IMG/VR virus record: IMGVR_UViG_3300028048_000080
Span: 1-64,000 of that record
Direction: 5' to 3' (one strand)
DNA length: 64,000 bases
From: a virus
Lineage: Duplodnaviria > Caudoviricetes
A program made the position numbers and the translations under genes. Positions 8,441 to 59,030 of the stretch are shown piece after piece. The notes beneath the pieces are model-generated. The model saw nothing but the letters and a program-made list of their open reading frames with translations, had not been told where the DNA came from and ran no database searches. Each line of letters starts with the position of its first letter. Position 1 is the first letter of the stretch.

Positions 8441-8444
8441 GTGG

Positions 8445-34490: not shown

Positions 34491-34862
34491 CTACATGATA
34501 CAGCCGCCAGGGGGCTGACACCCCCCGCCGTCACTGAATACATCCTGACGAAGCTGTCGTTTGGAACGCACGTCCATGGCATAGTTGCCGACGTGACGAG
34601 CCACTACTACGCAGGTATCGCCAGTATCTTCTACTACTACTGCGTCATTAACTGCCGGAAACCAGTCTGCACCGTTACCGTACAATCTGACGACTACATT
34701 ATCTCTATTACGTTTCCTACCGCCCTTATCGATGTATTTTATACTAACCGTATTATTCGATTCGTCGGAGTCCGTTACGACACCGATGGTCGTAATACCC
34801 ACGTTAACGCGGGCGGCGGGATTTACTACTTCACTCTGCAGTTTGTCTTTCAATGCTGCCAT
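34491..34862 (-). CDS. baseplate spike OB-fold protein (gp5/gpV N-terminal-like), 123 aa
   Basis: GVVT...NTVSIKY...WFPAVNDAVVV pattern; lies between the hub and the lysozyme. Confidence 0.65.
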   Translation of the reverse strand: MAALKDKLQSEVVNPAARVNVGITTIGVVTDSDESNNTVSIKYIDKGGRKRNRDNVVVRLYGNGADWFPAVNDAVVVEDTGDTCVVVARHVGNYAMDVRSKRQLRQDVFSDGGGCQPPGGCIM

Positions 34863-37800: not shown

Positions 37801-40800
37801 GCGAAGATTGAGCTGGTCGAGCACACCGCTGGTACGAGTACGTTTTTCTTCCTCGTCTTCGCCCAGAGTAGAAGGAGAAAACATTGAACGGAAAACATCG
37901 TAGGCAGAACTTTCTTTAGCGCGAAGTCTCGTATCTTCCTCGGTAGTTTCTGACTGATAAATATTAGTCAGCACGATATTGGCCGTATCCGCGGGATTCT
38001 TTCTATCCTTAATTACGTCGAACGACAAGATATTGGTGGAATTATAGAAGTTATCGTGAAGTTTATAGCTGCCCAGCTCACGTCCTTCGTCGATAAGCAT
38101 CATATAATAGGTAGGAAATGCTCTAAGCATGCGACCGCGTGCATCGTAGACAATCATGTCGTGGCACGAATGCATCATGTACTGCTTCGGATCATCGGCA
38201 GCTTTAATGTAAAGCTGATTATCCATCTGCTGTACTTTCCGGCTACTCGGAGCACTGGGACGAACACCGGAAGCAATTTTGTTTTCCTGTCGCCCGACCC
38301 CAGCCAGAGCCAAGTTGGACTTGCGCATACCGGTGGACAATTTGTCATCCGGTGAAACCGGGGTAGATGGAACGGATACGCCATGCAAATATTCGTTGAG
38401 TCCTCGGTAATCACGTTTATCAATACGGTCACGAAGCATCTTGTTGCCGTCCGAGAGAGCGAGCATGGAGCATACCCACATCTTGCCGGCGTCGATAGCG
38501 TAAGCATTCTTGGTAAAGAATGTCATATGGTCGCGCAATTCAGCATCTGCCTGAGAAGCCGGAATCTTGTTGCGTTCTTCCGCTTTACGGATTTCTCCTT
38601 CAGCCTTAGTAACTTTACGGAGAATATCTCCGTTGATAGAAGGTAAAGCCCTTTTAAGAATTAAGCGGCGGAGCCAATAGAGCATGTTACGCATATAAGC
38701 GAATGCACAGTACTTGGGGCTGTTAATGCACCCTTGTTTATATAAGCGGATAGTGTCTACCGGTTGATAACGGTAGTAGCGGTCAAGAAGATAACGAGAA
38801 GCATTAAGAGGGCTCTTCTCTTTTTCCTCATCGCTCCACACGTCCACGGGATTTTCACCCGTTACCTGTAAGAATTCTTCTGGAGTATACTGGCGAATAT
38901 TGAATGCGCCAAACATACTAGCCTCTTCGATAGCTTCCGCGAGGGTGCTGGCAGATGCGGCCTGAGCCATATTCTGCGTGCCGACCGGAACTTTAACGCC
39001 CATGTAGTCAGGAGAGGGCATCCAATCGATAGCTTTTTTCTTGGAGGAGTATTCCTTAGAACCACTGGCGGAGCATGCCGCCGCGAATACGATATCTTCC
39101 GTAATTGAGCGGAACGCTTCTGTACGGTCAATATTCAATAGCTCAAAAATCTCGATAACTTCAGGGGTGCTCAAGAAGGCTCCTACGCCGAGCCGGATAT
39201 CGGCCTTAACTGAATCAAAGCTAGGTTTTAAATCCTGGTCGCTTTGTTTCTTGTCAAAATAGCTATTGCGGCAAGCACTTTCCTTTGGAGCCTCTAACGT
39301 AATGGGAACGTCGGTGAGATATTTGGCTATCTTTTCGGCTGCTGTATTAGCGTTGGCCAGTTGTCCGATTACCCATGCGCCTTCAGGCATCGTCCGCCCT
39401 TTTTGCGTCCCAGGAACTTGCGATGTATCATCGGTAGCCTTAACCTGCGTGGTATCATCCGTGGATTTAACCTGCGTAGTATCATCGGTAGCTTTAACCT
39501 GAGAAGTATCGTTGGTAGCGTCTACGTGAGGCTGTTCAAAGCTATCTTTAGCGTCATCGGCTTTTTTACGAGCGTCGTAGGATTCAGCTTCTTTCTTGTA
39601 ACGATTTTCCATGAAGACTACGCGAATATCGTTATTGATTTCCCACGCGTCGTAATCTTCTACGGCGGCACCTACACGACTTTTATCCCGAAGATTTTCA
39701 GACAATCCTTTGGCGTTAAGCTCATACTGTGAATTGAGAGCAGCTTTAGCGAATTCCGTTTGCCGTTTAGCTTCACTATTAGCAGCTATCAAATCAAACC
39801 CTTTTAATTCAGCGGGCGACATAGAGTATTGCGCGCCGGACGCATCCGTAAGCGTTCTGGTTCCGTCAATGCCTGCTTGCACTGAATTAATGATGGTTTC
39901 TCTTAATATCTGGCTGGATAAACGAGTAAGATATACGAAGTAGAAGTCAGGATCGACGTAAGTACGGTTGTCCTGGAACTTATAACGGATAAAGTCATAA
40001 CCCAGAGTGCTCATCTCGGCCAATGTGGGAAGTTCCAGGTCAGGATATAGTTCGGCGTGAGATATAGCAGTTTCGATTTCGAAGTATGACTTCATCTTCT
40101 TAGCTTGATAAACGTCAGCACGATTTTTCTTGCCTTGGGCCCAGTCAGCAATGTCGTCGGCGAATGAAGATGCGCGATAGCCGCCATTGTTTGCCTGGAT
40201 CATCTCCGCGGATTCGCGGTTGCGCAAGGTGCGGTCCATAGACTTCATGATAAGGTTAATCTGATACGTGCCGGGATGATTGTCGACCGTATTTACCGTG
40301 ACGTTATCAATCATTACTTCAGATACACCGAGAAAACGAGTGAACTCAGAATCGACTTTGATAGGATAACAGGGGATAATCTGTCGATACTTACGCATCA
40401 TCATGGTGGCGTAATCAGGCATGCTTTCGATCATCTTAACGGCATTTTTATCTGTAGTCATGATGCTGACATTGAATTCTATATCCTGGCCGCCAAGGAA
40501 CTGCGCGCAGGATTTGCCACTTTCCTGCAGATGAACGTTGCTGAACGTATTGCGGAGAGAAGCACTGATGGAAGTGATATGGAACACGCCGGTATCAATA
40601 GGTCTGAAACGCATGTTATCCAGCTGAGCTATTAACGGCGCCTTCATCCAGCCATCGGTGGAAGCTTCTCCACTGCCATCATTTTTTACTCGCGGAGAAT
40701 TCTGAAGCGTATTTAAGGCATAATCCCATACGCGAGCTTCAGGACGGGAGGTGTCAAGTCTGTCATATACGTGCTCCTGTGAATTCTTTTCGGGATCAGG

Positions 40801-43386: not shown

Positions 43387-43417
43387 AAAAAGTATCAGCA
43401 CGATACTTTTTCAAAAA
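43387..43417. repeat. 31-bp palindromic element, copy 1
   Basis: AAAAAGTATC-AGCAC-GATACTTTTT-CAAAAA, identical to 52351..52381. Confidence 0.95.
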
Positions 43418-43446: not shown

Positions 43447-46400
43447 TTATGCTACGCCGATAGCGTGAGCTACCATACGATTAACTTGTAGCTGAGATAA
43501 ACTGTTGCCTACCGAAGTGCTCAGGTTAACGTTGACTGAACCAGTCTGAGGAGTCAGTCCGCTGGCCGCGTTGGAGATGGCATCCACCGCTGCCTGCTGT
43601 CCTTGGCCAGTTTGAGCGTTAATGTTGATAACGTAGCCTGAGGATGGGCCACCGCGCATTACGTTCAGATTGGAGTCGGATAATGACATCTGCTGCATGG
43701 CAATCTGATCCCCTTGGTCATTAGACATCTGCATCGCCTGAGTCTGAGCCGGAGTAGGAACATCGTGCTCTACCGAGGGGCCGGAAGCGTAGCCGGCAGT
43801 CATGAGCCCGGCAGCTATCCCGATTGCCGCGGCTATAGCTTTTCCTCCGGCTCCGCCGATGGGCGCAATATCGAGCATGCGTCCGAAAGATTTCCCGGCG
43901 CTTTCGGCCGTATCTTGCACTACGGCGCGTCGATAACGAGCGTTACGGTTCCTGGAGGCCGCTTCAGCCATCTGCTGTGCCGCATCTTCAGCGTTCTTAT
44001 GTATCGCCGTTGAAGTAGCGTTATCCAAGTCGTTAAAAGCTCCGCTGACTCCGGCTTCAGCATTCATATCATTTAATACCTGAGCTGTTTTGCCGAGTTG
44101 ACTATCTACCGAGTGACTGGAACGATAATTGAGTGGATCGGAGGCTTTTAAACCTGAGGCAGAAATACCCGTCATTAAAAGTTTTTGTTCTTTCTGGTCG
44201 ATGGTAGTGTTGCGCACGATATCACCAAAAAGCTTAGTGGTATTTTCGATAAGCTCATCGGTGTCGCCAAGCATGGCTGAACGCGGGCCAAATTCCTTTT
44301 TAGCTCTGTCCTTAAATACGCCGCCTACAAATGTTTGAAGAGCACTTGCCGCTTCTTCACGGTTTTCTCCCGTATACATTGCTTTTACGGCATCGCCCCA
44401 TACCTTCTGCAGTTCCTCAGCTCGTTTTAAGTCCGTTTCGCCGCGGGCGTTTTTACCGGTGAGAGCACCTTCCTGTAGAGCCATTAGACCGATAAGAACT
44501 TCGGCGTTTTCTTTACCCGTAAGCTTAGCTTGAGAATGAGCTATACGAGAGAATTCGAATAAGCTCTTATTCATAATACCGGCTGCTTTCTTAGAAGCCG
44601 CTTCGGTAAAACGTTCATCCATGCCCATCTGCCATTTACGATAATGCAGGGCTTCATCAAAGGCGGCGGCTTCTTCTTTGCCGTAGTTTTGAGCTACGAA
44701 GTTACCCATTCGCTGAACATAAAGAGCTTCATCTTTGGCCGCTCCTTTCTCAGCATCCCAGATTTTTTCAAAGTCTTCCGCGTGGCTGGTCTTATAATTT
44801 TCATTCAGCTGATCTAACAGGGCTTTATTGGTTTTTATTTCTTCCTCGGTGTATTTCTTTTCGAAGTTAACCAGTCGGTCACCATCGTAAGTATATTCCG
44901 TAAGGTTGCTAACACCGTAGGAATCATCGGCGATATGTTTCCCGTCTTTCCCCCAGTGAGATTCCTGAGGCTGGCCATACGGCGTAATATCTACCGCGTT
45001 GCGTACCATGCCCGCCTTAGCTTCTATGAAGTTATCATCGAGCAGTTTAACGTTCGTACCTTCCATGGCGCTTAAAGCACGATACGCGGCGAAGTCGACT
45101 TGGGCACGTACGGTGCGTCCATCAGCGTAAGTAATTTCGGCTTCACTCTTACGGATCATCGCGTTGATCTTATCGGAGTCATAGTCACCGTTCTGCTGGC
45201 GGAACGTCTTTAAGTTGGTACGGAATTCATCTCGACCGAGAATATCGCTAAAGTGCATATTGACGGCTTGAACCGGGTCACGAGAAACCAACGGATAACG
45301 CTGATCTACCGCGATAGTACCCTCTTTATCTAATACGCCGAGAGTCTTTTCTTTCAGCTGCTTAGCCAGTTTTTTATCGCCGCCAGCCATCTGCTCGAAC
45401 ATCTCGTCGGAATAGATAGCGTCTCTATGCTGCGTGCTGGCAAATAAGAAGCCGAGATCCATACCACTACCCTTTAAGACAGCATCTTTGGCGTTTCGGA
45501 TGTCGGCCAGTTCAGTGAATGATTTCCCGGAATCAAGGAATTTGGCATTGCCAAAAGCGCCATCTAATCCGTCGCCGAGGAACTGGAACCCCTGTGCCGT
45601 GCCGTACATGGTGCCATCCGAAATAACCGTAGTGGACGCCCGTTTGAACGTGCCGTTTTTATCGGTAGCTTCCTGCGCAACCATCGAACGGAGTTTCTCT
45701 GTCTCACGCATCAGTTCACTGCGCCGCTTCTCGTTAATATCTTGTCCGCCGCCGCGATGATTCTCATACTCGCTCGTGTACTGGTCATGCAGGCGCGTTA
45801 CGCGAGCTACCTGGCGCTGCAGCTCACTCTTACGAGCCGCGCCGGTGCTGTCTTCCTGCTGCAGCGCGGAGAATGGCAAGGCAATGGTGCGGTCACGATC
45901 CGACGTATATATCTGGCCATCTATTAAAGAGTTGGAATGCAAGTCAAGAACAATGGCCTGTCCATACAATGATTCAGCGAATTTATCATCAGTTTTATGG
46001 ATGCGAGCGTTGGTACGGAGGTCGTCGATAGACAAGCTGGTAAAGCCCAGGTTGTTCATTTCTTCCAACGAGTATTTATGACTGCGATTATATTCATGCG
46101 CGTTGGTCGAACTATTAGCTTCGATGAGGTCTAAGACTCTATTGGCGGTAGCATCTTGTACGTTGGACTTCTTCAGAGCATTAATGGCTCTCTGCGCAGT
46201 CTTTTTGTCGACCCCTTGCTCTTTGAGCCATGCCATGCCCTCTTCAGCGGTTTGGGCAGTTTCTCCGTTTTTCAGAATATGCTCAGCCCCTTGTACGCCT
46301 TTCCCCTCGTGAACGAAAGTGTCTTTCATAAAGTCATCGACGAGAGTCTGGTAGGCCAAGTCGCCATCTTTTTTAGACTTGGTAAAATCTTGGATAGCTC

Positions 46401-49400
46401 TTGAGAAGGCCGTGTCGCCGAACGCATCGGATATAGCCGTGGAAGATTTATCTATATAGTCCTTCGTATATACGGTGCTCTTCAAAGCATCAATAGTACG
46501 TTCATCTGCTTTGAAAGTGGATCTGTCTCCAGACTTACCGTAGTTATAGTTAGGCAGGACTCTAACCTGAGTGCGGGCGACTTCGTACATTACGTCGCCA
46601 TATTTGGTGGAAAGCTGGTGCATGGAATCGTGCCAGCCATCTTTGCCGCCAAAATATTTTTCCGTAACTTTGTTTAAGCCTTTAGTGCTAAGATGGCTGT
46701 CGTCAGTTACGAATTCTGCCCATTTTTTACCGTCAGTATCTTCATGGATTTTGATGCCTTTCATGGCACCGTTTTTCTCCATGATGTCCTTGGCTTCTTC
46801 TATGGAAAAACCCTTAAGATCGATTAATCCGTTAAACGTAGCTTCGAATGCGGAAGGGCCACCATGTTTTTTATGACCGGCCGCCGTATGACCGAACATG
46901 TCAATAGCTTCTTTTATGCCTATATCTCTTAGAGCTTCGTCCATAACGGTATTGGTACGGTAACGCTCTTCGAGTAAAGCGGAAGCAAACTTCGCCACAC
47001 CGCCAAAATTCTTGTTAATAATTTCTTCTATCTTGGCGTCGTTAAGAGCTAATAGTCGTTCACGCTTGGCTTTGTCTTTTTCCGCCATCGCTTTGCTGAG
47101 CGTCAGACCATGAACGAAAGCGGCAAATCCCGTACCTTTTACGGTTCCGGTATCAAACAATTCTTGAATAAAGTCGACGTGAATTTGCCGGCCGATAAGC
47201 TTTTCTGCGTTCAGCTCTTTTAATGTGGAAGCGATTTTCTTGTCGACTTCTTGTGAACCTTGGCCAAGCCCGTTCATCAAGACATGGCTCATCTGTTTTT
47301 CGCTATAGTCGGTCAGCTTAGTGTGGCCATCTATATCCAGGCTTTTAACGTAGAAGTCGTGAGAGAACGGCGAATTTTCCTTAGAGAAAAGCGCCCAGGC
47401 AGCCTGCTCGCGCTCAGCCCCCGTAAGAGATTTGTTAATATTCTGGTTGATATAATCGCTTACGGCCTCATCGGTCATTTCTTGACCGTTTTTAAAGATG
47501 CCTGACCTTAAAAGCCCTGTCTGCTTAGCCCTTACGGTTTCGTCTTTATACGTAGCGCTATTAGAAGCTTTAGTAAACAGTTCTTCTCCAGATTCTACGT
47601 ATACGCCTGCGTTCGATTCATAATGGGCCATACCGTCGGCGTCAAAAGTAATTTTGCCCTGAGCTTTCAATAGCTTTTCGAAATTACGGCTATTTTCGAT
47701 ATCGGAGCGGGCAATTTTGCCGAAAGCAACATGCTGTTCAAAATGCTCGGAGGTTAATCCGGCATCTGCGGCGCGGGCCGAAATGGCGCCCGATGCTTCA
47801 TCCGTAAAGATGGACATCATCTGACGATATTCGAAGGAGTCCTCGCCCAGCTTATCGGCAGCATATCGCATTAAGCGGCGCATACTTTCCGAATCAGCGG
47901 AGAGCTTATTGACCACCATGGTGTCGGCAACGTTATGGCCAAGCTTCTCGGAAATAGCATTCATATGCATGTGTTCCTGCATGGATTCGAATGCTGCTCC
48001 AAAACGTACGCCACGGCCTTCCATGATTTTTGCGGCGCGTTCTACATTGAACGGGATGGCCCTATCCATCTTAGTAGAAATATGGTTAAGGTCTTTGTCA
48101 TAGGACATTAATCCGCGATAACTGTCGGATAGAATATTTACCTGACCACGGGTGTCACCGGCATGGCTCAGGATATCCTGAAAAGCGCCTGTGGTGTCGC
48201 CTTCAAAGAGGTCGAGAAATTCTGCGCGCCCAGAGTCAATACTATCGACGATATACGGAGTCAAAATATGCAGTGTGCGCATATATGCTGCCGCGAGAGA
48301 ACTCGATGCATTCTTTAACGAATTGATTTCATCGACTCTTTTAGCGTGTTTAATACCTTCATCGCCGATTTTCTCCAAGTGCTCAATCATGATATCGGCA
48401 GCCTGCGTACCTTCGTCGCGAAGTTTTTGTATTATCTCTTTGCGGTCTTTTTGCCCTATCGTATGTAAAGTTTCGTCTATATTAATAACGTTAGCGAGAT
48501 TACGGTCTTGGCGGTCGCCAAAATAATCAGCTGAGTGCTGCCGATATCTCGCGCTTCGCATTCCGAAAATGCCTGATACTTCTTCGGCAAGATTACCGTT
48601 TTCCCTTCCGCGGTTGAACATGAAGTTCATTAGGTTCTCGCCATCTCTAGCGAGACGACCTTCTTCCGTGGTATAAATTAAAGCGTTGTGCTTGGAAGAA
48701 TAATAGAGGCCTACTTCGTCGCCGAACTCTTGTCCGTTAGCCAGGCGGCGCTTAAAAGTACCGTTGGAAAATACGTTGCGGTCAAGACCGATTACGGTGT
48801 AGTTATTAGCCCTTACATCCTGCGCCGTATTATAGACCCAGAACTGGCCATAATCTTTGTTATAGCCTATAGCGCCGCCGTGAGAATAAATGCCGCCAAT
48901 AATCTGTTCAAGCATTTCTTGGCTGGCGCCGTAGCGGGCACGCTGCATCTTGTAAATCTTACGCGCGTCTCTCTCACTATAACCAGCGGTGTCTACCAGC
49001 TTCTGGATAAACTCCTGCTCTTCTTTTTCGGTTCCTTGCGATACATCGAAGCCGTTATTGAAAACTATGTTTTTATTAATGTCAGAAGCGACGCCCTTGG
49101 CCCAAGCTAGAAAATCCTGCCCTTCCTTGGACTCTTTTTTCCAAACAGGTTTACCGTTTTCAGCAACAGGCTTGAAACTAGTAGCAACCTGAAAATCGAT
49201 GCCGGTAGCTTTGGAACTAACGGCGAGAATCTCATCGTCCGTCAAACCGCCGTTAACCAAGTTGTCGATAATATCGAACTGCTCGGTGGTAGACAATATG
49301 CCAGCCCATACATTACGTTTTCTTCTTTCACGCATTAAATGAGTGATCTTGCCGCCGGCGATAGCAGCAGTGTCGTTTTCAATATCGACGAGATATTCTT

Positions 49401-52329
49401 GCCCGCGACCATCGGCGATGTCATCCAGTTTTATAATCCCTTGATCCAAGAGACGCTGTTGAAAGTTAGCCAAGAGAGTAAGTTTTTCATCTTCTTGAGC
49501 GTGCTCTATTTCGTTAGCGGAACGTCCCATTTGCCGCATCAAAGATTTGACTACGCCGTAATCAGCGTTGATATCGATTGAAGCCATAGTGCTTCCGGAC
49601 AAAGATTTAACCCCGTAGAATCCTTCGATATCCACTTGGAACTTATTCAGTTCGCTGGCAACGCGGGGAAGGACTTGATAACCTGCGCCGGCCTTGCCGA
49701 CTTTTTCTATAGCGGCTTCTTCAAACATATCCCGAATTTCGTGATAAAAGAATTGAGCTCTGTCATCACTTAAGGATATGTCTTTGCCATAATGGTCACG
49801 CACGGCTGTTAAAGAGGCTTTGATTAACCCCTTGTTTGCGCGCGCCCATTTTTCGAGCGACGCCATATTCTCCATCGTGTCGGCATAAGCCTTACGTTGT
49901 CCCGTCTCTTTGTCGATATAGCCAAAGTAGTCCTGAAGAGAACCGTCATATTCATTGAATTTAACTTCTACCCCAGAAAGTTGCTTCTCTTCTATCTCTT
50001 TCGTCTTAGCTTTAACCTTATCACGAAATTCTTGGCGAAGATCTTCAATGGTGCTTTCGTCCGCCTGATTTTTTAAAAGCCCTTTTTCCTTCAGCTTTTC
50101 ATTAACATATTTATCCATGTCGTCGACATACTGCATGAGCCTTTCGTCACGACTGGCAATTTTATCACGAGCTTTGCGCCCGGCAGCATCATTAAACGCT
50201 CTATCAGATATTTCCTCTAAATCTTTGAGAGAAGCTGTCTTGTATTTACGGTTGCCCTCAGCGTCTATAACCACCGTGCTAAGCATGTCCCGATATTCTT
50301 GGGGAACATTTTCCATTAAGAATTCTTTGTCGTTCCCCGTTTTTTTAGCACCCGCTAAGGTGAATAAGTTATTAACGGTATCCATAAGATCCTGATACTT
50401 GCCGACCAGAACGATGTCTCGGTGTGCCGAAGCCAACTTAGATTTGGTGTGCGTAGTCCAGCGCATAGCAAACAAGTCTCCGCCAGCCATATTTTCATGA
50501 TTGGAAAGTATAGGCATTAGCGGGGAATCAGATTCTATCTTGGAAATACCTGAAAGCTCGTATAATCCGCGGCGATGTATACCGGGCGCCTGATAAAGTG
50601 CCCGTGCGCCTCCTTTTTCGCCGATAGCTACGCCGTCAGAAGACCACCACTGGTTAGTGTCTTTGTCGAAAGCGAAAGACATTACGCCATGCTTATGCGG
50701 ATCCCAGGTAGAATTATTAGCGAAGAAAAGCTGCGTACTGTTGCCCTTTAATTTAACGGCGTTTTTGGTAGCTTTTTTAGTGATAAACGAATTAGAGGAG
50801 TTAGGGTCATAGAATCCGCTGCCGAATACTACGCGCATAAGGTCGATGGCATCAGCTTCAGCGATATGGGTTTGACCGCTATGGATAGCTTCCGGCGAAA
50901 GACCTTTTTTAATAGCCGTCGCCGCCAGGATTGTCTGCTGAGTTTTAGGAGTCTCTTTCTGCGTTTTCATCCACTTCATGAGCGAATCCGTCTTGTCCTT
51001 GTCGCCCATGTAATTGCTCCAGAACGTATACGGGTCACCCATGTGTTCTTTAGGAAGAACCATTGCGTCGAGAGCGTTATTAAAATGCAGATGGTCGCCG
51101 CCAAGAATGCTACTCATTTCCTTACGGAATGCTTCAGTAGTTAAATCCTTATTATGCAGGAGATAATCGAGCTGAGGAATATCGAAGCGATTGCCATTAT
51201 AGCTTACTGCCGTAAGGTTATTGGCATAAATGTTACGGATGGCCGAGGCAAGCTCTTTTTCCCATCCGAACATTTCGTTGCCTACGCGGGTCTTTTCTTG
51301 GTACTCGCCGACTTCACGGAGAAGATTAGCGCCCTTAATCATTTCTTCTATCGTGCCGTTCGCGCCAGTTATATCCTTCTGCTCGGAGAAAGAAGAAAAT
51401 CTAACTACACCGTCTTTGGCTTCATCCCAGTTCACGTGCGTATATTTAGCGCCATGCAAAGCGAGACGGTTAAGGGTTACAAGTTCACCTTCTGCCATCT
51501 TTTCGCCACGAGAAAAACGGTCGATGAGGTTAAGCATATTCTTATGCTCTTTGCCGGACAAACCAATAATAGAACCGTAAGTTTTCTTAATATTGAAGTC
51601 GCCCGTCTTAAAATCGCCGAAGCCATCAGAGAAAGAAAACTCGGTAATACGCTGCATCTTATCGTATAACTTATCACCGTGACGACCGAAGGTTTCCAAG
51701 TCGAATGCTACGGCGCGCCCTTTTTGGGCGACGATGTTTTCGACGGCTTTTACTGATTCGTGTGGAGCGCCTTTAGTATAGGGGGTAGTTTTTTGATAGA
51801 TAAAATCGTATCCCGTGGTCTTTCGACTTTTCCCGTAAGTAAAAGCTTTGGAAAAAGTACGCACATTAAGACCCGAATACAATTTAACTAACTGCTCGTC
51901 AATTTTAGGAAATTCACTGAACTTCCTGACGGCTGCGTGTGGAACCACTATAGTAGCGCCTTGCGGTTGAGCTAAGTCAGCTATACGATACGCCAAGAAA
52001 GGAGCTATACTATGGTTTTCTTGCAGAGCAAGTTTTTTCCGCATTCGCTCCAACTCGCCACTGTGTTTTTCTCTCCACCAATTCCGATCTTGATTGTATA
52101 GCCAGACACTATTGTCTAAGTCTTTGATGATATCGGCATCGGCTTCGTCGCCTATATCCTTAAAAAATTTTAAGCTTTCTTGTTGTTCGTGAAAAAGATC
52201 TCTTTCGATGTGTTGTCTAGCATGTTTTCGCTCGTCCATCTTTTTTTGGAACGATTCCGAATTAGTAAATTTATTTAATTCAGCCTGCATACGAGCCTGC
52301 CGTCTTGCGTTGTCGCTGAAAAATGCCAT
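43447..52329 (-). CDS. putative single-chain two-barrel (virion) RNA polymerase fused to an N-terminal DEDDh 3'-5' exonuclease, 2960 aa
   Basis: Exonuclease motifs FDLET (D210,E212), YNGNRFD (D383), HIAEAD (H488,D493). Beta-like DEASGAISARA, GVYVESGEELFTK...KDETVR and KLTDYSEK. Beta'-like QRYP (R2344) and NGDYDSD (2380-2386). Confidence 0.75.
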   Translation of the reverse strand: MAFFSDNARRQARMQAELNKFTNSESFQKKMDERKHARQHIERDLFHEQQESLKFFKDIGDEADADIIKDLDNSVWLYNQDRNWWREKHSGELERMRKKLALQENHSIAPFLAYRIADLAQPQGATIVVPHAAVRKFSEFPKIDEQLVKLYSGLNVRTFSKAFTYGKSRKTTGYDFIYQKTTPYTKGAPHESVKAVENIVAQKGRAVAFDLETFGRHGDKLYDKMQRITEFSFSDGFGDFKTGDFNIKKTYGSIIGLSGKEHKNMLNLIDRFSRGEKMAEGELVTLNRLALHGAKYTHVNWDEAKDGVVRFSSFSEQKDITGANGTIEEMIKGANLLREVGEYQEKTRVGNEMFGWEKELASAIRNIYANNLTAVSYNGNRFDIPQLDYLLHNKDLTTEAFRKEMSSILGGDHLHFNNALDAMVLPKEHMGDPYTFWSNYMGDKDKTDSLMKWMKTQKETPKTQQTILAATAIKKGLSPEAIHSGQTHIAEADAIDLMRVVFGSGFYDPNSSNSFITKKATKNAVKLKGNSTQLFFANNSTWDPHKHGVMSFAFDKDTNQWWSSDGVAIGEKGGARALYQAPGIHRRGLYELSGISKIESDSPLMPILSNHENMAGGDLFAMRWTTHTKSKLASAHRDIVLVGKYQDLMDTVNNLFTLAGAKKTGNDKEFLMENVPQEYRDMLSTVVIDAEGNRKYKTASLKDLEEISDRAFNDAAGRKARDKIASRDERLMQYVDDMDKYVNEKLKEKGLLKNQADESTIEDLRQEFRDKVKAKTKEIEEKQLSGVEVKFNEYDGSLQDYFGYIDKETGQRKAYADTMENMASLEKWARANKGLIKASLTAVRDHYGKDISLSDDRAQFFYHEIRDMFEEAAIEKVGKAGAGYQVLPRVASELNKFQVDIEGFYGVKSLSGSTMASIDINADYGVVKSLMRQMGRSANEIEHAQEDEKLTLLANFQQRLLDQGIIKLDDIADGRGQEYLVDIENDTAAIAGGKITHLMRERRKRNVWAGILSTTEQFDIIDNLVNGGLTDDEILAVSSKATGIDFQVATSFKPVAENGKPVWKKESKEGQDFLAWAKGVASDINKNIVFNNGFDVSQGTEKEEQEFIQKLVDTAGYSERDARKIYKMQRARYGASQEMLEQIIGGIYSHGGAIGYNKDYGQFWVYNTAQDVRANNYTVIGLDRNVFSNGTFKRRLANGQEFGDEVGLYYSSKHNALIYTTEEGRLARDGENLMNFMFNRGRENGNLAEEVSGIFGMRSARYRQHSADYFGDRQDRNLANVINIDETLHTIGQKDRKEIIQKLRDEGTQAADIMIEHLEKIGDEGIKHAKRVDEINSLKNASSSLAAAYMRTLHILTPYIVDSIDSGRAEFLDLFEGDTTGAFQDILSHAGDTRGQVNILSDSYRGLMSYDKDLNHISTKMDRAIPFNVERAAKIMEGRGVRFGAAFESMQEHMHMNAISEKLGHNVADTMVVNKLSADSESMRRLMRYAADKLGEDSFEYRQMMSIFTDEASGAISARAADAGLTSEHFEQHVAFGKIARSDIENSRNFEKLLKAQGKITFDADGMAHYESNAGVYVESGEELFTKASNSATYKDETVRAKQTGLLRSGIFKNGQEMTDEAVSDYINQNINKSLTGAEREQAAWALFSKENSPFSHDFYVKSLDIDGHTKLTDYSEKQMSHVLMNGLGQGSQEVDKKIASTLKELNAEKLIGRQIHVDFIQELFDTGTVKGTGFAAFVHGLTLSKAMAEKDKAKRERLLALNDAKIEEIINKNFGGVAKFASALLEERYRTNTVMDEALRDIGIKEAIDMFGHTAAGHKKHGGPSAFEATFNGLIDLKGFSIEEAKDIMEKNGAMKGIKIHEDTDGKKWAEFVTDDSHLSTKGLNKVTEKYFGGKDGWHDSMHQLSTKYGDVMYEVARTQVRVLPNYNYGKSGDRSTFKADERTIDALKSTVYTKDYIDKSSTAISDAFGDTAFSRAIQDFTKSKKDGDLAYQTLVDDFMKDTFVHEGKGVQGAEHILKNGETAQTAEEGMAWLKEQGVDKKTAQRAINALKKSNVQDATANRVLDLIEANSSTNAHEYNRSHKYSLEEMNNLGFTSLSIDDLRTNARIHKTDDKFAESLYGQAIVLDLHSNSLIDGQIYTSDRDRTIALPFSALQQEDSTGAARKSELQRQVARVTRLHDQYTSEYENHRGGGQDINEKRRSELMRETEKLRSMVAQEATDKNGTFKRASTTVISDGTMYGTAQGFQFLGDGLDGAFGNAKFLDSGKSFTELADIRNAKDAVLKGSGMDLGFLFASTQHRDAIYSDEMFEQMAGGDKKLAKQLKEKTLGVLDKEGTIAVDQRYPLVSRDPVQAVNMHFSDILGRDEFRTNLKTFRQQNGDYDSDKINAMIRKSEAEITYADGRTVRAQVDFAAYRALSAMEGTNVKLLDDNFIEAKAGMVRNAVDITPYGQPQESHWGKDGKHIADDSYGVSNLTEYTYDGDRLVNFEKKYTEEEIKTNKALLDQLNENYKTSHAEDFEKIWDAEKGAAKDEALYVQRMGNFVAQNYGKEEAAAFDEALHYRKWQMGMDERFTEAASKKAAGIMNKSLFEFSRIAHSQAKLTGKENAEVLIGLMALQEGALTGKNARGETDLKRAEELQKVWGDAVKAMYTGENREEAASALQTFVGGVFKDRAKKEFGPRSAMLGDTDELIENTTKLFGDIVRNTTIDQKEQKLLMTGISASGLKASDPLNYRSSHSVDSQLGKTAQVLNDMNAEAGVSGAFNDLDNATSTAIHKNAEDAAQQMAEAASRNRNARYRRAVVQDTAESAGKSFGRMLDIAPIGGAGGKAIAAAIGIAAGLMTAGYASGPSVEHDVPTPAQTQAMQMSNDQGDQIAMQQMSLSDSNLNVMRGGPSSGYVININAQTGQGQQAAVDAISNAASGLTPQTGSVNVNLSTSVGNSLSQLQVNRMVAHAIGVA

Positions 52330-52350: not shown

Positions 52351-52381
52351 AAAAAGTATCAGCACGATACTTTTTCAAAAA
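52351..52381. repeat. 31-bp palindromic element, copy 2
   Basis: Identical to 43387..43417 and in the same orientation; lies between the GGTAAT motif and the SD of the 2960-aa gene. Confidence 0.95.
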
Positions 52382-52419: not shown

Positions 52420-52444
52420 AAAAACCCTGGATTATTCCAGGGTT
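52420..52444 (-). terminator. intrinsic terminator
   Basis: AACCCTGGA-ATAA-TCCAGGGTTTTT overlapping the stop of the 2195-aa gene. Confidence 0.85.
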
Positions 52445-55400
52445 AATAAGAGCTCTGCATAGATAGAGAGTTTTCGACCATCTTCTGTTCGTGACGCATA
52501 CCCATCATCTGTTTAACAGCGGCCCATATGGTAGTACCGCCGCCGGTAGGTCCGGCTTCCACGGAAATGTCGACACCTTTAAGTCCGGCGCCCTTGAGCA
52601 CATCTTCCATGTAGTTTTTTACGGCGGCTTCATTATGGTCACGGCCGCCACCTCGGAAGTTTACCGTAGGAGCGTTGATTACTTTTTCATCTCTGACTTG
52701 AGAATCGTAGTAGCCAAAGTCCGAAAGATTCATCGCTTCGTTTTCGATGGTCTTAACCTCAATATTATTCAAATCATACTGAGGAGCCCATCCTGCCCAG
52801 TTGGCTACGGGCAGTTCATGCTTAGCGAAAAATGTTTCATTATCTTCCTGCTCGTCCACCGTCTGTCCCCAGGCAAGCTGCAGAGCTTTACGTAGGAACG
52901 GTGAAACCTTATTGAGAATAACGTTACGTTTATCTGGATTGACTTCTTTAACAAATTCCATGAAGTATTCACGATCATTCGTCGGAAGGGCGGTAACTAT
53001 TTGTGACCATGAAGAATTCTCGTCCAAAGCATACATGGTTGCGTCAGCCGCTTTCTTATAAAGAAGCGCGGTGCGCGTCCATTCGCCGCCCGGAAGAATC
53101 ATAGTGTCTCCTTCGAGATCGGCTATCTTAGCATTGAGCTTCTTCATCAGCTCGTCGCGCTGAGTGCTTGGACGGGAATTCTGTTGAAGTTTCTTCTTCA
53201 TGCTCTTGTACTTGCTAAGAGCCTTCTGGTTCTTCTCCGCTTTCTCTTGCTGAAGCTCTATGACGTCTTCGAGATCGACGTCTTCTTCTTCCTTGGCTTT
53301 TTCAGCGGCGGCATGGAATAATCCTTCGTACTTCAGATAGGTTAGTCTATCGAAGTAATCTTGCATCTCCCATTTTTCTTTAGTGCGTTCAGGAATCCAG
53401 TCACCGTTAGGGTTTTTCTTTCCGTGGTAGAGCATACCAGCCGCCGCGCCAATAGCGCCGTATATCGCACGGGTCTTGCCGTTCTTTTCGAAGAAACGCC
53501 CTACTTCCTGCCCGATATTGGCCATAGACAACGCTTCATCGACATAGCTGTTACCGCCGGTTGCGGCATGAGCTAAAGTCATCGCGGTACTGCCGTAGCG
53601 CGACCAATTCATACGGGTTCTTTCATCCAGCCCCATGGCATTACCGAGAACGTTACCGATGAAAGCGCCGCGATCGCCAAAGATAAACGCGTATGCGCCG
53701 GCATGCTTCATCCACGGAGAAGCACCTTCAAAATCGCGGGTAAAACGATAAACATTGCCGAGCATGCCAGTAAAAGCGCTGCGGTCATGTGCTGCACGTT
53801 CTAAAGCGGGCATCAGGATGGAATTAATAGGATGTTCCCATGACTGATATGGCGTACCGTATACCTGCTCTGCATCATACGACTCAAGAGGAGAACGTAC
53901 TCGTAAGAACTGGTCGGAAAGCCATGGGATATCCATATGGGCGATATACTCTGAACCCCATGCTACCATCTTCTGCACGGGGCCGTAATTAGCCAACGTT
54001 GCCGCCGCCGACGTATCACCTTTACGTATAGACGCATCGCCATTCTTAATCATTTCTTGGCCGATATTCATACCGTCAGCGAATACGGCGGCATTTAACG
54101 TGCCTTGAGCATCTTTGTTTTTACGAGCGTACTCATCTTCGTCTACCGCTACCGTTACAGTTTCGCCTACGTGAATATAACGATTCAAGACTTCTTGCGC
54201 GCTTTCCTGTGCATTGGCTTTTAAGTGAGCGCCGGCTATCTTGAATATGCGGTTGCCCGAACGGAACTTGCCGTACCCCATGACTTCTGATACGACTACC
54301 TGTTGGTATTCCAGCCCTTTACCTACTACCTTATAATCGTAGAAATCATGTTTTTTACCTTGCTGATTTACTCGGTCACGAATCTCGTCCATCTCGTCGA
54401 TAAGTGCCGGGTCAGTAATGGTCTTTTTGGCTATGTCGCGCCATAGACGATATTCGGGAGAAAACGGCGCGATATCAGCCAGTATTTTCATACGGTCAAA
54501 AGCGCCGTATTCGCCGTACTGGTCAGGATGCAACTCATTAAGTGATTCATATCCTTTACCCGGGAGACGCATTTCGCCTTTTTGAATTTGCGTGAAGGGA
54601 TCGCCGAATCTGAAACGTTCAGGGAGCCAATCAGGCATGGTATTCATAAGTGGATTATTTCTTGGCCCACGGCGATAATCGGGAACGAAACGACGAGCTA
54701 TTTCTGCTGCTGCGCCGCCCAAACCACCGAGATTTTCATCCCAGAAGGTACGGGAGAACGAAGTCATATCCTGCCCCGTAGCGATACGCTCCATATCATC
54801 GACGCCGAATCCGGTAGCGGCACCGAGAGCGTAACCGTAGATACCTGAAATCAAACGCCAGGATACGGCGGCATTTTCTACTACGCCCGCACCTTTAGTC
54901 TGGTTTATCAGCTGAGTTACGGCATCCGGGTCACTCAAGAAATCCATTGCTTGAGACGGGCGATAAGACTTCAGCTTGTCGCCGTGAATCATCGTCTCGT
55001 CTTCATCTACTCCGTAAGGCGAAACGGTTTTACCTGACTCAGCTTTACGGGAAGCAGTTACGGAAGCGAGCATTCTTCTGGGATTTACTTTAGAAGCAAG
55101 AGCGGAGAGTTCTCCCCACGCATGTGTGCTATGCATTGGATCAATGCCTCTTGCGACATCTTCCAACATATTGCCATGGACGAGCCCGTCAACTACGTCG
55201 TTGCGCGGCAGCATATCCGTTAACTCATCGTACAAAGTCTCTCCGACCAGCTCGTTATACAAAAGCTTATCTTCCGCAGAAATCTTTACATGCTGTTTTT
55301 GCGTGGTTATGACGGTACCATTGCCTTTGTCATCCGTTGCGATGACCGACCCCTGTTTCGGAGGAGGACCACCGAAGAGTTTGTAATCTATCGCTTCGAA

Positions 55401-58400
55401 GAAACCTATATGGGTAGAGCCGATATCATCGAGAACCTTTTCGGTCTTAACTCCTTTACCTAGCCCACCACCGCCAGTCGGCATCTTATCTAATGGATAT
55501 ACGCCGTATACGCCAGGGTCAACGTCGCCGTACTGTCCACTCTTAAATTGGAACGAAGCGATGCTGGTATCTGATGTCGGTGCGTCAAACATATCCAGGG
55601 TTACGGGATCAAAATCCATGCCGTTTACCTGAATATAGTTACGGTGGCCTATATCGCGAGCTTTCTGCTTAATGTTCTGCGTGATACCATACAGCAATGC
55701 TTTAGGGTCTACGCCGTTAATATTGCGATAGTCGAACCCAAGGAAAGTGTTGAGACTTTTTTGAGGTTTGATTAATTCGCCTATAGTAGGATTTAATACC
55801 GCGCCCCATGGAGTACCGTCGGCAAACATATGACCGGTCAGCTCATAAGGTCTGTCCTCTTTATGCTTCTCTTCTAACCAATACGGATCTAATATTCCGG
55901 CTATGGGAGAAAATGGATTGGTAGGCGTCGGCAAAAGGCTGTGCGACCATTTATCCCAGTAGCCATCGTAAAGAGCCTTGTCTTTCCAATCGGATTGGAT
56001 ACGACGAGCAAACGTAGGCTCCCAATAGGATATCTCTGCGCCGCGGGCTTCGTTTACGCCGCCGAATGTCCACCATGCACCTTTGCGTACGGGAGTGTAT
56101 CCTTTCTGATACCATTCACGCCGTTCATCGGCGTTCATGAAGTCATCGTGATCGCCCCAGTATTGCATTATAGGGTTAATAGCCTTTTCGCCTTTGAGCC
56201 AATCGGTTAAACCGATGGTATCCAAAACTTTGCGGCCGGCAATATCGAATTCCGCTACGCCTTGAGCCATAGCTCCAGACATGGACATACCCGTTATCTC
56301 TTCGGATGTATCATCCATCCATTCAAGATAAGTAGCTCCTACGGCCACGGGGAGAATGCGTTTGGTAAACATCGCCGTGAGCATATCCGTAGCACTGCCC
56401 ATGTTATCCTTGGAGAAACCTAATCCAACTTTATTCATTTCGTCGGACAAACGGGATAAGAAGAAATATGGAACGTACGTAGCGTTGGTAACATCACCCA
56501 TATTGCCGCGGCCGGCAGTAAACTGTTTTCCGAACTGCTTAGCCGTATCCATGAAACGGCCTTCGGTTACGCTGGTAAGAAGGTCTGTTACATGTACCGT
56601 TTTACGTTGAGTAACGAACTGGTTATACGGCAGCGGATTAGCTATCTCATCTGCCTGCATATATGGCGTGTCGAAGAGATGTTCATTTTCGGCGGCCATA
56701 TTAGCCAGGTCTTCCTGAAATTGCTTATCCATTTGTTCGTTGCTGCTGGATAATGCGCTGCTGACAGATCTTAACGCTTTCCATTCATCTTCTCTGGTGA
56801 AAGAGTTTTCTTCAGACATTCTTAGCGCATCTTCAAGATAAGTCAGATCATTCAATCGATGAGCGTTTATGCGTTCCGCGTCTTCCAGCCCAGCCGCGTT
56901 TATTTTGTCCAACGCTTTGGCATAATCAGGTTTTGAAGAACCATCGCGCGCCATCTGAGCGAAAGCTTCGCGACTAAACAAGTTGCGTAAGTACTCTTTT
57001 GCATCTTCCGTATAATTGCCGGGTTCGGTATTGGGTAAATCAAGGACGCTGGTAGAAAGATTTAATTTTTCTTTGGCTACTTTCTGAACGATATGGGAAT
57101 TGAGACTGTGGATATTGCCACGCGCCTTACGGGCCAGATCATTCAATTCGCCGATGGCATAAGTGTCGTCTCCGCTCTGCATAAGGAGCTCAAGCATAGA
57201 TTCGTAATCGTCTTTGACCAAATACTCCAGCATGGTGCGCGCAGGAGTTTTACCTTCGTTAGCCAAGAGCCGTTCAGCACTTAACGAATCAATGCCGTAA
57301 GTATGATTGCGAAGATTATCGCGGATAACGTCTACGCGATCGTGATAGCTATCAAGCCATTCATCAGAAACCAGTTTTTTATCATATTTTTGAAGTCCAA
57401 GAATGTCGGCGTCTTCTATAGTAGGATTGAGCATATCGCGGGCAGCCGTGGGGAAATAATCCAGATTGCTCCCCTTATTAGCCCAGGCATTGTATTTTTC
57501 AGCGAATTTAAAGCCGCTGAATTCATCGCGTCCTTGTCCTATATCAAAAAAACTAGTAAACCAGTTGCCACCTTTTTTGTAGCGTACGTTGCCGGACATT
57601 TGCTGATGCATATGCTTGCGTGGGCCGAATCTGCCGGAAACGAATTCTGTCTCGATACCCTGCATTTCTTTGGCGAGTTCGATCTTATCGTCGCCGACTC
57701 TATACCAGTCGCCCATAACGTAGAGCATATTGCTGTCAATTACGTTAGTCTTTCTATTATCGGCGGCGTTAGATAATGCCGCGAGGCCAGGATCTATAGA
57801 ACCTTTCGCCGCAAAATGAATATTGGGCATTACGCGGTCGAGAGATGCCTCGCGCATCTTAAAGATTTTGCCGGGAAGCGTATTCGCGAAACTGGATACC
57901 AGTTCATCCATAAACTTACGACTATCGTGGAGGCTATACATGTTGCCTCTCGCATCCATGCGCAGCACGTCAGCGTCAGGCGTTAAATCCAGGAATCTCT
58001 GCTCCTTAGACTCTTTCATGTAGCGGTCGTAAGCTTTGGTGCCCTTCTTGGCGTTCTTATTTAACCCCGCCTGCTTATCCAGTTCTTCGAAGTACAGGCG
58101 AGCATCTTCGATATCGTCAAGCGGGCTGTAGTTCGTGCCTCGATTTTCGCCATTTACCTGGTAATGGTTGACAGAAGTTTTATCTTTATTAGCCAGAATT
58201 TCACGGTTGCTTACGCCGCGGCCACCGGTAACCCTATCCTTTATGCTTAGATTTCTAACGGTACCGAAGCGTTTTTCCATTCGGTCGAGGTTATATGCAG
58301 ATTCGTTAACCTGTTCGGCGAGCTTCTGGCTGAAATCGTCAACATATTTTTTACGCGCTTGCTTGTTGTCAACATAACGCATATAGCGAAGCATTGTATC

Positions 58401-59030
58401 GATATTTTTATCTTCCAGGAGGCCAAGCTCTTTCCTGGCTTTTCTGACATCTCTTCTGTTACGGACATTGGATACAATCTTCTGCATGAATTCATAGCGC
58501 TTGGCTATTTGGTTTTCCGAATACTGTGCCCCAAAATGCTTTGTAAACTGGTTTATGGAGTGATTCAATATATCCTGTCGCCAGCTCGCTTGAGCCATGC
58601 TCTTAAATCCGGAAGCGTTAGCCTGACGAAGTTCGCTCATTAGGCCGAATAAATTGCGCTGGTCATACGGATCTAAGTGCAACGGAGCAGTCTTGGCTTT
58701 CTCCCAAGATTCTTCCCACGCACTCTTGCCATCGCTTTTAAGGCGGCGAATATCGCTTATCGTCCAATCGCCGAAATCACGTTTAAATACCGTGCTCTTG
58801 CCTAAACGAGAAGCGAAACGGGCACTAAAATTTAAGCCCCGCGAAATAGCAGGGCTGAGGCCAGATCGATGCGCCAGAACGGTGCCGGCAGCACCGGCCG
58901 CTCCATAATAGGCGTTATCCGTTATGAATTTACTAACTGAGCTAAAAAAGCCTTTACCTTCATTTTCACGGGCTTTGTTTCGCTCAGCCTGTTCCTGTCT
59001 TTGCTTTCTTGCTGCTTCTTCTGGCGTCAT
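52443..59030 (-). CDS. tape-measure-like / ejection protein with degenerate SNase-like domain, 2195 aa
   Basis: Directly follows two tail chaperones; largely helical with several Gly/Ala-rich hydrophobic segments; SNase-like segment at about 54035..54303. Confidence 0.55.
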   Translation of the reverse strand: MTPEEAARKQRQEQAERNKARENEGKGFFSSVSKFITDNAYYGAAGAAGTVLAHRSGLSPAISRGLNFSARFASRLGKSTVFKRDFGDWTISDIRRLKSDGKSAWEESWEKAKTAPLHLDPYDQRNLFGLMSELRQANASGFKSMAQASWRQDILNHSINQFTKHFGAQYSENQIAKRYEFMQKIVSNVRNRRDVRKARKELGLLEDKNIDTMLRYMRYVDNKQARKKYVDDFSQKLAEQVNESAYNLDRMEKRFGTVRNLSIKDRVTGGRGVSNREILANKDKTSVNHYQVNGENRGTNYSPLDDIEDARLYFEELDKQAGLNKNAKKGTKAYDRYMKESKEQRFLDLTPDADVLRMDARGNMYSLHDSRKFMDELVSSFANTLPGKIFKMREASLDRVMPNIHFAAKGSIDPGLAALSNAADNRKTNVIDSNMLYVMGDWYRVGDDKIELAKEMQGIETEFVSGRFGPRKHMHQQMSGNVRYKKGGNWFTSFFDIGQGRDEFSGFKFAEKYNAWANKGSNLDYFPTAARDMLNPTIEDADILGLQKYDKKLVSDEWLDSYHDRVDVIRDNLRNHTYGIDSLSAERLLANEGKTPARTMLEYLVKDDYESMLELLMQSGDDTYAIGELNDLARKARGNIHSLNSHIVQKVAKEKLNLSTSVLDLPNTEPGNYTEDAKEYLRNLFSREAFAQMARDGSSKPDYAKALDKINAAGLEDAERINAHRLNDLTYLEDALRMSEENSFTREDEWKALRSVSSALSSSNEQMDKQFQEDLANMAAENEHLFDTPYMQADEIANPLPYNQFVTQRKTVHVTDLLTSVTEGRFMDTAKQFGKQFTAGRGNMGDVTNATYVPYFFLSRLSDEMNKVGLGFSKDNMGSATDMLTAMFTKRILPVAVGATYLEWMDDTSEEITGMSMSGAMAQGVAEFDIAGRKVLDTIGLTDWLKGEKAINPIMQYWGDHDDFMNADERREWYQKGYTPVRKGAWWTFGGVNEARGAEISYWEPTFARRIQSDWKDKALYDGYWDKWSHSLLPTPTNPFSPIAGILDPYWLEEKHKEDRPYELTGHMFADGTPWGAVLNPTIGELIKPQKSLNTFLGFDYRNINGVDPKALLYGITQNIKQKARDIGHRNYIQVNGMDFDPVTLDMFDAPTSDTSIASFQFKSGQYGDVDPGVYGVYPLDKMPTGGGGLGKGVKTEKVLDDIGSTHIGFFEAIDYKLFGGPPPKQGSVIATDDKGNGTVITTQKQHVKISAEDKLLYNELVGETLYDELTDMLPRNDVVDGLVHGNMLEDVARGIDPMHSTHAWGELSALASKVNPRRMLASVTASRKAESGKTVSPYGVDEDETMIHGDKLKSYRPSQAMDFLSDPDAVTQLINQTKGAGVVENAAVSWRLISGIYGYALGAATGFGVDDMERIATGQDMTSFSRTFWDENLGGLGGAAAEIARRFVPDYRRGPRNNPLMNTMPDWLPERFRFGDPFTQIQKGEMRLPGKGYESLNELHPDQYGEYGAFDRMKILADIAPFSPEYRLWRDIAKKTITDPALIDEMDEIRDRVNQQGKKHDFYDYKVVGKGLEYQQVVVSEVMGYGKFRSGNRIFKIAGAHLKANAQESAQEVLNRYIHVGETVTVAVDEDEYARKNKDAQGTLNAAVFADGMNIGQEMIKNGDASIRKGDTSAAATLANYGPVQKMVAWGSEYIAHMDIPWLSDQFLRVRSPLESYDAEQVYGTPYQSWEHPINSILMPALERAAHDRSAFTGMLGNVYRFTRDFEGASPWMKHAGAYAFIFGDRGAFIGNVLGNAMGLDERTRMNWSRYGSTAMTLAHAATGGNSYVDEALSMANIGQEVGRFFEKNGKTRAIYGAIGAAAGMLYHGKKNPNGDWIPERTKEKWEMQDYFDRLTYLKYEGLFHAAAEKAKEEEDVDLEDVIELQQEKAEKNQKALSKYKSMKKKLQQNSRPSTQRDELMKKLNAKIADLEGDTMILPGGEWTRTALLYKKAADATMYALDENSSWSQIVTALPTNDREYFMEFVKEVNPDKRNVILNKVSPFLRKALQLAWGQTVDEQEDNETFFAKHELPVANWAGWAPQYDLNNIEVKTIENEAMNLSDFGYYDSQVRDEKVINAPTVNFRGGGRDHNEAAVKNYMEDVLKGAGLKGVDISVEAGPTGGGTTIWAAVKQMMGMRHEQKMVENSLSMQSSY

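Follow-up and report, generated by a model that had tools for sequence, protein, structure and literature searches.

A predicted DEDDh exonuclease domain shares a giant tail-slot protein with an RNA polymerase region in 0305phi8-36-like myoviruses

The locus considered here is a giant open reading frame (ORF) of a tailed bacterial virus, found in a 64,000-nucleotide stretch of DNA (positions 1 to 64,000 of the IMG/VR record IMGVR_UViG_3300028048_000080, hereafter the window). A single long structural operon on the minus strand makes up the window, and the ORF (P0001; 43447-52329, minus strand, as are all its features given below) runs uninterrupted for 2960 aa, preceded by a terminator-like hairpin and then by its own ribosome-binding site. 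Two enzymatic regions are predicted in its product: a DEDDh (DnaQ-fold) 3'-5' exonuclease domain spanning residues ~200-525 (50755-51732) and, far downstream, the beta'/Rpb1-like part of a single-chain two-barrel RNA polymerase (RNAP) spanning residues ~2085-2750 (44080-46077). A preliminary description of the window, made from the letters and translated reading frames, had proposed a complete exonuclease catalytic set, interrupted by a long insertion and fused to the N-terminus of a putative RNAP.

Translation and alignment of homologues place the three exonuclease motifs where the preliminary description had seen them, all in this one uninterrupted ORF. ExoI (AVAFDLETFG, 51685-51714) supplies D210 (codon 51700-51702) and E212 (51694-51696), ExoII (TAVSYNGNRFDIPQL, 51169-51213) supplies N378 and D383, and ExoIII (QTHIAEADAID, 50842-50874) supplies the H488-x4-D493 pair that defines the 'h' type. 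The long insertion is there as well, since 173 residues separate D210 from D383 as against ~90 over the corresponding ExoI-ExoII spacing of Pol III epsilon. Its core is a mostly helical, family-specific segment lying between ExoI/beta3 and ExoII (residues ~258-355; 51265-51558), delineated from the secondary structure of the model described below and from conservation, with a conserved VTLxRLAL motif. This segment of ~100 residues after beta3 has no counterpart in any solved exonuclease, and its start is common to CDS0027 of Moorella phage MTATph1. The linker between ExoII and ExoIII is likewise longer than usual, giving two family-specific insertions in the domain, which also contains an additional invariant aspartate, D421.

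The fold agrees with the motifs. An AlphaFold2 model of residues 144-563, computed from an alignment of 30 sequences, has a DnaQ-type RNase H-like fold (pLDDT 84.5, pTM 0.83), as had been anticipated for residues 200-500, and matches DEDD exonucleases. The best 50 rows of a PDB fold search with VIA-align, a method independent of Foldseek, are DEDD exonucleases throughout and align with model residues 57-382. Pol III epsilon (epsilon186) is the best structural match (Z 12.2, rmsd 2.8 A, 168 of 174 residues), followed by Exonuclease I (Z 11.8), DinG-exo (Z 11.5), 3'hExo (Z 11.4) and the exonuclease of T7 DNA polymerase (Z 11.1), and REXO2/Orn-type nanoRNases, Cap18, Pol alpha and Exuperantia are also among the structural neighbours. 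With Foldseek, the leading PDB matches are PARN, RNase T, Pop2/CAF1, 3'hExo and TREX1 (probabilities 0.87-1.00). The profile search that the preliminary description had put forward as a check gave no such support: Pfam RNase_H_2 (PF13482) reached 17.6 bits against a 22-bit cut-off (E 0.004) and RNase_T (PF00929) was not significant. A weak RNase_H_2 match appeared in 2/10 homologues, PDB sequence searches with the exonuclease domain and with a 10-sequence profile returned nothing relevant, and PHROGs assigned no family to the 2960-aa ORF, in which neither Pfam nor PHROGs recognised an exonuclease or an RNAP domain. The agreement of motifs, conservation and fold is nonetheless far beyond chance. 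Residues ~200-525 almost certainly form a DEDDh exonuclease domain, and the complete catalytic set claimed for it (D210, E212, D383, H488 and D493) is present and conserved on a predicted DnaQ fold.

The second region was modelled as residues 1950-2750 (AlphaFold2, pLDDT 84.4). The best 50 Foldseek rows for this model are largest subunits of multisubunit RNAPs and nothing else. By VIA-align the region matches Pol I A190 (Z 11.5, 384 residues aligned), the beta' subunit of M. tuberculosis (413 residues aligned), the phiKZ and AR9 phage polymerases, gp96 of phage P23-45 (Z 7.5) and QDE-1 (Z 6.8). It carries a DxDxD catalytic motif, DYDSD (D2382, D2384 and D2386; 45172-45186), and, 38 residues before the first of these aspartates, the sequence DQRYPLV (45286-45306) with a conserved R2344-x-P2346. 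Translation puts both motifs in one frame with those of the exonuclease, and R2344, P2346 and the three aspartates are invariant in 10 full-length homologues. Two lysines, K1671 and K1678, which are among several invariant residues upstream of the beta'-like region, are candidate residues of the second (beta-type) barrel; a protein-atlas look-up of residues 1450-1950, aimed at that barrel, was uninformative. Fold and invariant RxP/DxDxD residues together support the earlier claim of one polypeptide: the predicted beta'-like half of a two-barrel RNAP is in the same chain as the exonuclease. The claim of a fusion to the N-terminus of the polymerase holds as far as the chain is concerned, but the exonuclease lies ~900-1,500 residues upstream of the polymerase core, with residues of no assigned function between, and is not joined to the polymerase N-terminus. 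Beyond the polymerase region comes a conserved Gly/Ala-rich segment (residues 2826-2850; 43780-43854), the most hydrophobic stretch of the protein. The C-terminal ~130 residues, just after it, are the best-conserved part of the whole protein, and their most conserved portion is a module running from GYVININA to QVNRMV (43450-43653).

Homologues were collected with a word-indexed search, which gave 10 full-length relatives of 2923-3200 aa (32-92% identity in the exonuclease region), and with HMMER run exhaustively on 1.8 billion cluster representatives, which gave 43 relatives, nearly all 2600-3800 aa long and matching at the same N-terminal offset. The five catalytic residues of the exonuclease are invariant in 10/10 of the full-length relatives, and they are kept in 44/45 aligned homologues and in 11/12 IMG/VR loci. 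Since identity over the domain is only ~22-47% among those aligned homologues, this constancy is the signature of selection on catalysis. The two regions also stay together. Each of the 12 IMG/VR loci has one giant ORF matching both the exonuclease and the RNAP profiles. Among 52 full-length homologues, automatic alignment finds both the D-E-D-H-D and the R-P-D-D-D sets intact in 47, and three more are intact by eye or with K in place of R, which brings the count to 50/52. The preliminary description had asked whether the fusion is conserved or could be an error of assembly or a frameshift; these ~50 full-length relatives with both catalytic sets answer the first part, and recurrence of the same architecture and size on >50 independent contigs from different samples, and its presence in a distant form in three cultured phages, answers the second. 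That the exonuclease-RNAP fusion is true and conserved is close to certain.

The two remaining homologues (P0042 and L013), which belong to one lineage, have lost both sets, and loss of one set alone is seen in 0/52. In this lineage the ExoII aspartate is replaced by G and the ExoIII aspartate by N, and RxP and DxDxD are both gone. One of the two lies in a complete 138-kb genome with terminal repeats (G006), in which an ORF at ~42.7-50.7 kb (G006:C1) encodes a 2693-aa protein that is the sole copy in that genome. It is a natural 'enzyme-dead' variant of a protein that is still needed, presumably for a structural role. A second, non-virion RNAP was not detected in G006 by searches of limited sensitivity, among them one for the second half of that enzyme and one for a D[FY]DGD pattern, and a homologue of this second enzyme was found in four other relatives. 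Short database matches of 283-1300 aa were considered as stand-alone exonucleases and rejected, one being on a 1.5-kb contig and another continuing in frame past stops. In the gut metagenome contig L022 (4100-4300), a homologue of the giant protein resumes in the same frame after an A-rich stretch with in-frame TAA/TAG, which in this very AT-rich phage could reflect recoding of the stops, a short inserted segment or faulty assembly.

The source record is a 124.6-kb linear contig, and its relatives are rated complete at 214-247 kb. The large terminase shares 44% identity with its counterpart in Moorella phage MTATph1 and 31-36% with the enzymes of Bacillus phages 0305phi8-36, WH1 and KLEB27-3, and the gene order is that of 0305phi8-36 (sheath, tube, two chaperones, gp145, gp146, then gp147, the hub or 'endolysin'). 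Judged by these relationships, the phage is a large myovirus of the lineage to which Bacillus phage 0305phi8-36 and Moorella phage MTATph1 belong. On one side of the ORF, a gene for a 2195-aa protein (52443-59030) is a BLAST homologue of gp145 and of Moorella CDS0026. On the other, a gene for a 2829-aa protein (34831-43320) encodes a gp147-like giant hub protein, a BLAST homologue of Moorella CDS0032 with a match to PHROG 20474 'endolysin' over residues 1962-2445 and a weak match to DUF6046. Flanked by homologues of gp145 and gp147, ORF 43447-52329 therefore occupies the gp146 slot. In 0305phi8-36 the record for the protein in that slot names it a 'hypothetical tape measure protein' and lists its mass-spectrometric detection in the virion; it was called a tape measure from its length, and among its relatives conservation is confined to the last ~60 residues (Hardies et al., PMC2147016). 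The position of the ORF is that of a tape-measure gene, after the tail tube and chaperones (one gene away) and before the baseplate hub. Homology of the 2960-aa ORF to a known tape measure was found neither in Pfam nor in PHROGs, hhalign against gp146 gave a probability of 0.15, and a profile of the C-terminal module showed no significant match to gp146 or to the Moorella proteins, CDS0031 included.

An identical 21-nt palindrome, AAAGTATCGTGCTGATACTTT (minus strand), occurs at 43389-43409 and 52353-52373, in both gaps flanking the exonuclease-RNAP gene, and nowhere else in the window, where chance alone would give 0 occurrences. It may act as an RNA hairpin or a processing signal; alternatively, the two copies could delimit a gene cassette open to exchange, in keeping with the way the content of the slot varies among relatives. 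The ORF at 62750-64000 (to 64330 in the genome) matches PHROG 9206 'major head protein' and is by synteny a tail tube paralogue; the match arises because the 0305phi8-36 record so names its tube proteins gp140 and gp141, and the true capsid gene (Pfam Phage_capsid_4) is at 72392-73648. Two adjacent plus-strand ORFs of 680 and 728 aa, at G000 89139-91181 and 91250-93436 (L002:5139-7181 and 7250-9436), are candidates for a split YonO/QDE-1-like non-virion RNAP; Pfam matched neither of them, and the first has homologues in four related genomes.

The exonuclease is also found in this slot without a polymerase. The family profile of the domain matches Moorella CDS0027 (E 4e-7), and hhalign of CDS0027 against the family profile gives 88% probability (E 3e-6) over 176 columns that take in the flank before ExoI, ExoI itself, the start of the insertion and ExoII. 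CDS0027 also passes Pfam RNase_T (PF00929), with 27.6 bits against a 24-bit cut-off. No D.D.D motif is present anywhere in CDS0027 or in 0305phi8-36 gp146. By these profile comparisons, CDS0027 clearly carries an orthologous exonuclease domain without an RNAP. At 34538-36780 of MTATph1 (L019), an IS21-type transposase and an IstB-like ATPase split the slot gene into CDS0027 and CDS0031, and the latter looks like its C-terminal remnant. BLAST pairs gp146 with the Moorella protein over the ExoII-III region of the latter (E 9.6e-10), and ExoI (YLDIETTGL, at residue 1223), an ExoII-like QNVADAD and ExoIII (HLARAD) can be picked out in gp146; hhalign of the family profile against gp146 is not significant. 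It too probably carries an exonuclease domain and no RNAP. Like the 2960-aa ORF, gp146 and CDS0027/CDS0031 lie between gp145 and gp147 homologues, and inspection by eye suggests that the C-termini of gp146, CDS0031 and the ORF product are alike in having a hydrophobic segment and, after it, a short beta-like motif, a likeness that is not significant. By contrast, gp146 and CDS0027 have no DxDxD and no match to the RNAP region, their exonuclease is in mid-protein, and they have no significant overall homology to the ORF.

Three cultured Bacillus phages show the other arrangement. In vB_BauM_KLEB27-3 (gp034, 2434 aa), vB_BceM_WH1 (gp095) and Edson, the slot protein has an N-terminal exonuclease followed by an RNAP with DYDGD, the order seen in the window. 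These proteins, annotated as structural or hypothetical, are very distant from the ORF and shorter, and match the family profiles at E 2e-9 and 5e-6. They were found by family profiles alone, tblastn of the whole ORF against 50,697 GenBank phage records having returned no match. Taken with the Moorella protein and gp146, which lack the polymerase, these phages with both regions indicate that the exonuclease is a lineage-wide feature of the slot and that the polymerase is present in some branches only.

What, then, might the nuclease do? Because the exonuclease persists without the polymerase, I rank action on a DNA end first, above trimming of transcripts. The exonuclease is a fixed module of the giant tail-slot proteins of 0305phi8-36-like large myoviruses. 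The protein would be carried by the virion, probably within the tail lumen or next to it, and by analogy with P23-45 gp96 would be ejected with the DNA. In the first moments of infection the nuclease may then act on a free 3' end and chew back the 3'-ended strand at the terminus, which would leave a 5' single-stranded tail. Such a tail would be the template strand for genes pointing toward that terminus and would be a poor substrate for end-dependent nucleases of the RecBCD/AddAB type. The genomes offer one relevant observation: in two complete relatives, one of them with terminal repeats, the gene for the non-virion RNAP is 11-12 kb from a contig end and points to that end. The parts of this proposal are not equally firm. 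Delivery of the protein in the virion is probable. That the substrate is the 3' end of the entering phage DNA is a tentative choice, a little short of an even bet, and I hold the chain as a whole, DNA-end substrate included, with the same reserve.

Several considerations weigh against it. Among the structural neighbours, DNA and RNA exonucleases are tied within one Z unit. I infer packaging in the virion from the position of the gene and from record annotations, the presence of the exonuclease in gp146 rests on evidence at the level of motifs, and contig ends need not be the physical ends of the genome. A promoter ~11 kb inside would need a very long resection, and DEDDh enzymes are mostly not so processive on duplex DNA. 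The joint loss of exonuclease and polymerase residues in G006 means that the activity can be dispensed with under some circumstances and perhaps has a link to transcription. Finally, P23-45 runs the same programme without an exonuclease.

The co-loss in G006 leads to the strongest alternative, editing of the transcript. The exonuclease would trim the 3' end of the RNA product of its own polymerase, removing ends that are misincorporated, or backtracked and extruded from the secondary channel, or would trim transcripts once they are terminated. DEDD-polymerase fusions so far characterised all edit the nascent strand, as in DNA polymerases and with the nidovirus nsp14 ExoN. In keeping with such a role, both sites are intact in 50/52 homologues and the sole lineage with a loss has lost both; that lineage also has no detectable second RNAP in its complete genome, and the few copies of a tail-delivered polymerase could presumably not afford a dead-end stall. 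Yet the co-loss happened only once, and the sensitivity with which a second RNAP was sought is limited. A two-barrel RNAP can itself cleave backtracked RNA with its active site, fidelity should be of little weight in brief early transcription, and ~1,500-1,900 residues of the chain separate the exonuclease and RNAP modules. Above all, the exonuclease is present in the same slot without DxDxD in CDS0027, and probably in gp146, and the nuclease is therefore not simply a proofreader of the RNAP. Transcript editing appears a doubtful explanation, if a serious one.

Occurrence of the domain with and without the RNAP module would be equally natural for a nuclease directed at the host, an injected effector acting independently of the polymerase on nicked host DNA, mRNA, nanoRNA primers, linear defence signals, or retron or other single-stranded defence DNA. 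Ejected phage proteins often counter the host, and REXO2/Orn-type nanoRNases, Cap18 and TREX1 are among the neighbours returned by the fold searches. Cyclic signalling nucleotides are unlikely targets because DEDDh enzymes need a free 3'-OH. Such an effector would, however, be present in few copies per virion, if the stoichiometry is that of a tape measure, and would be tethered in a 2960-aa protein with a membrane-type C-terminal segment; the hypothesis also leaves the co-loss with the RNAP residues in G006 unexplained. I regard it as unlikely.

The G006 lineage, which keeps the domain despite having lost acidic residues of ExoII and ExoIII, also raises the idea of a non-catalytic remnant whose fold is retained for a structural purpose or to bind DNA ends. 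Pol alpha and Exuperantia, both of which are among the fold matches, are examples of DEDD-like domains without activity, but conservation of the five catalytic residues in ~50 homologues with no more than ~22-35% identity over the domain makes this very improbable for the family. A further reading turns on the polymerase, which might be a PolD-like two-barrel DNA polymerase with the exonuclease as its proofreader. A DEDD exonuclease in a polymerase chain is a hallmark of replicative DNA polymerases, PolD is a two-barrel enzyme that copies DNA, and a search of five complete relatives (G001-G005; loci L011, L007, L012, L014 and L010; 214-247 kb) revealed neither a polymerase of family A or B nor an RNase_T-type gene above cut-off. 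Each of these five genomes, however, encodes two DnaE-type Pol III alpha subunits of 937-1167 aa, on which ground this highly improbable reading was rejected; moreover, the best fold matches consist of largest subunits of RNAPs throughout, PolD being absent from the first 50, and the gene lies among tail genes. The weakest alternative, a frameshift, chimeric assembly or mis-joined contig, would suit the metagenomic origin of the record but is effectively refuted by independent recurrence, the uninterrupted architecture being found on >50 independent contigs and in a distant form in three sequenced cultured phages, and its probability is negligible.

A bolder hypothesis, to which I would give slightly less than even weight, is that in these phages a tail-delivered RNAP works with a built-in DEDDh exonuclease, either for resection of the 3' strand at the entering genome end, which would provide a ready single-stranded template for a sigma-less polymerase and hide the end from RecBCD/AddAB, or for editing of the transcript. 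If this is true, a cellular-type RNA polymerase would for the first time be seen coupled to a dedicated exonuclease module. Whichever role applies, be it preparation of the template end, protection of the genome end or RNA editing, it would reveal a new step in the initiation of infection. The exonuclease without a polymerase in slot proteins of the 0305phi8-36 lineage points to a general enzymatic function of tail-lumen proteins that annotation has missed. With distant homologues in three cultured Bacillus phages, the question is directly testable.

As an exonuclease, the phage domain shares its fold with Pol III epsilon, Exonuclease I, RNase T, TREX1, 3'hExo, DinG-exo, Cas2-DEDDh and Cap18 (Z 10-12, rmsd 2.8-4.0 A) and has, like the known DEDDh enzymes, ExoI DxE, ExoII Nx4D and ExoIII Hx4D. 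It differs from them in giving no significant profile match, in its helical insertion, longer ExoII-ExoIII linker and invariant D421, and in being embedded in a tail-module protein of 2960 aa.

Virion-carried RNA polymerases are known in few phage groups, namely the N4-like, phiKZ-like and crAss-like phages and the P23-45 group, and to these would be added a widespread large contractile-tailed lineage in which the polymerase occupies the tape-measure slot, paired with an intact DnaQ-type nuclease. I know of no characterised cellular-type RNA polymerase with such a partner domain. The preliminary description had likewise known of no characterised DNA-dependent RNAP fused to a DEDDh domain, and none was found in the literature, nor was any paper found to report a virion or tape-measure RNAP that bears an exonuclease. 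Nidoviruses have a DEDDh nuclease, nsp14 ExoN, in one reading frame with an RNA polymerase, nsp12 RdRp, and it proofreads RNA; there, however, the polymerase is RNA-dependent and of the right-hand type, cleavage yields two distinct proteins, and the virus is one of eukaryotes. Among phages, gp66 of crAss-like phi14:2 and the N4 polymerase are giant virion-delivered enzymes that also have large regions of no known function. By contrast with the protein described here they are podovirus cargo and not tail-slot proteins, and the N4 enzyme is T7-like; the paper on phi14:2 gp66 reports no nuclease domain, and the fold search with the RNAP region does not place gp66 among its top matches. Closer in design is P23-45 gp96 (also in P74-26, G20c and TSP4), a virion two-barrel RNAP fused to a tape measure, which transcribes pre-early genes at the entering genome end, including that of a second polymerase, and in the description of which no exonuclease or nuclease domain is mentioned (PMC10770324; PDB 8H2M/8H2N). 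Like the 2960-aa ORF product, gp96 is a giant tail-module protein with a single-chain DxDxD polymerase, and P23-45 also encodes a second, non-virion two-barrel RNAP. On the other hand, P23-45 is a Thermus siphovirus with no detectable sequence relation to the phage of the window, its polymerase is N-terminal and has no clamp, and the RNAP region described here is closer to cellular beta'/Rpb1 than to gp96 by the Z scores given above. P23-45 gp96 is nevertheless the closest known system.

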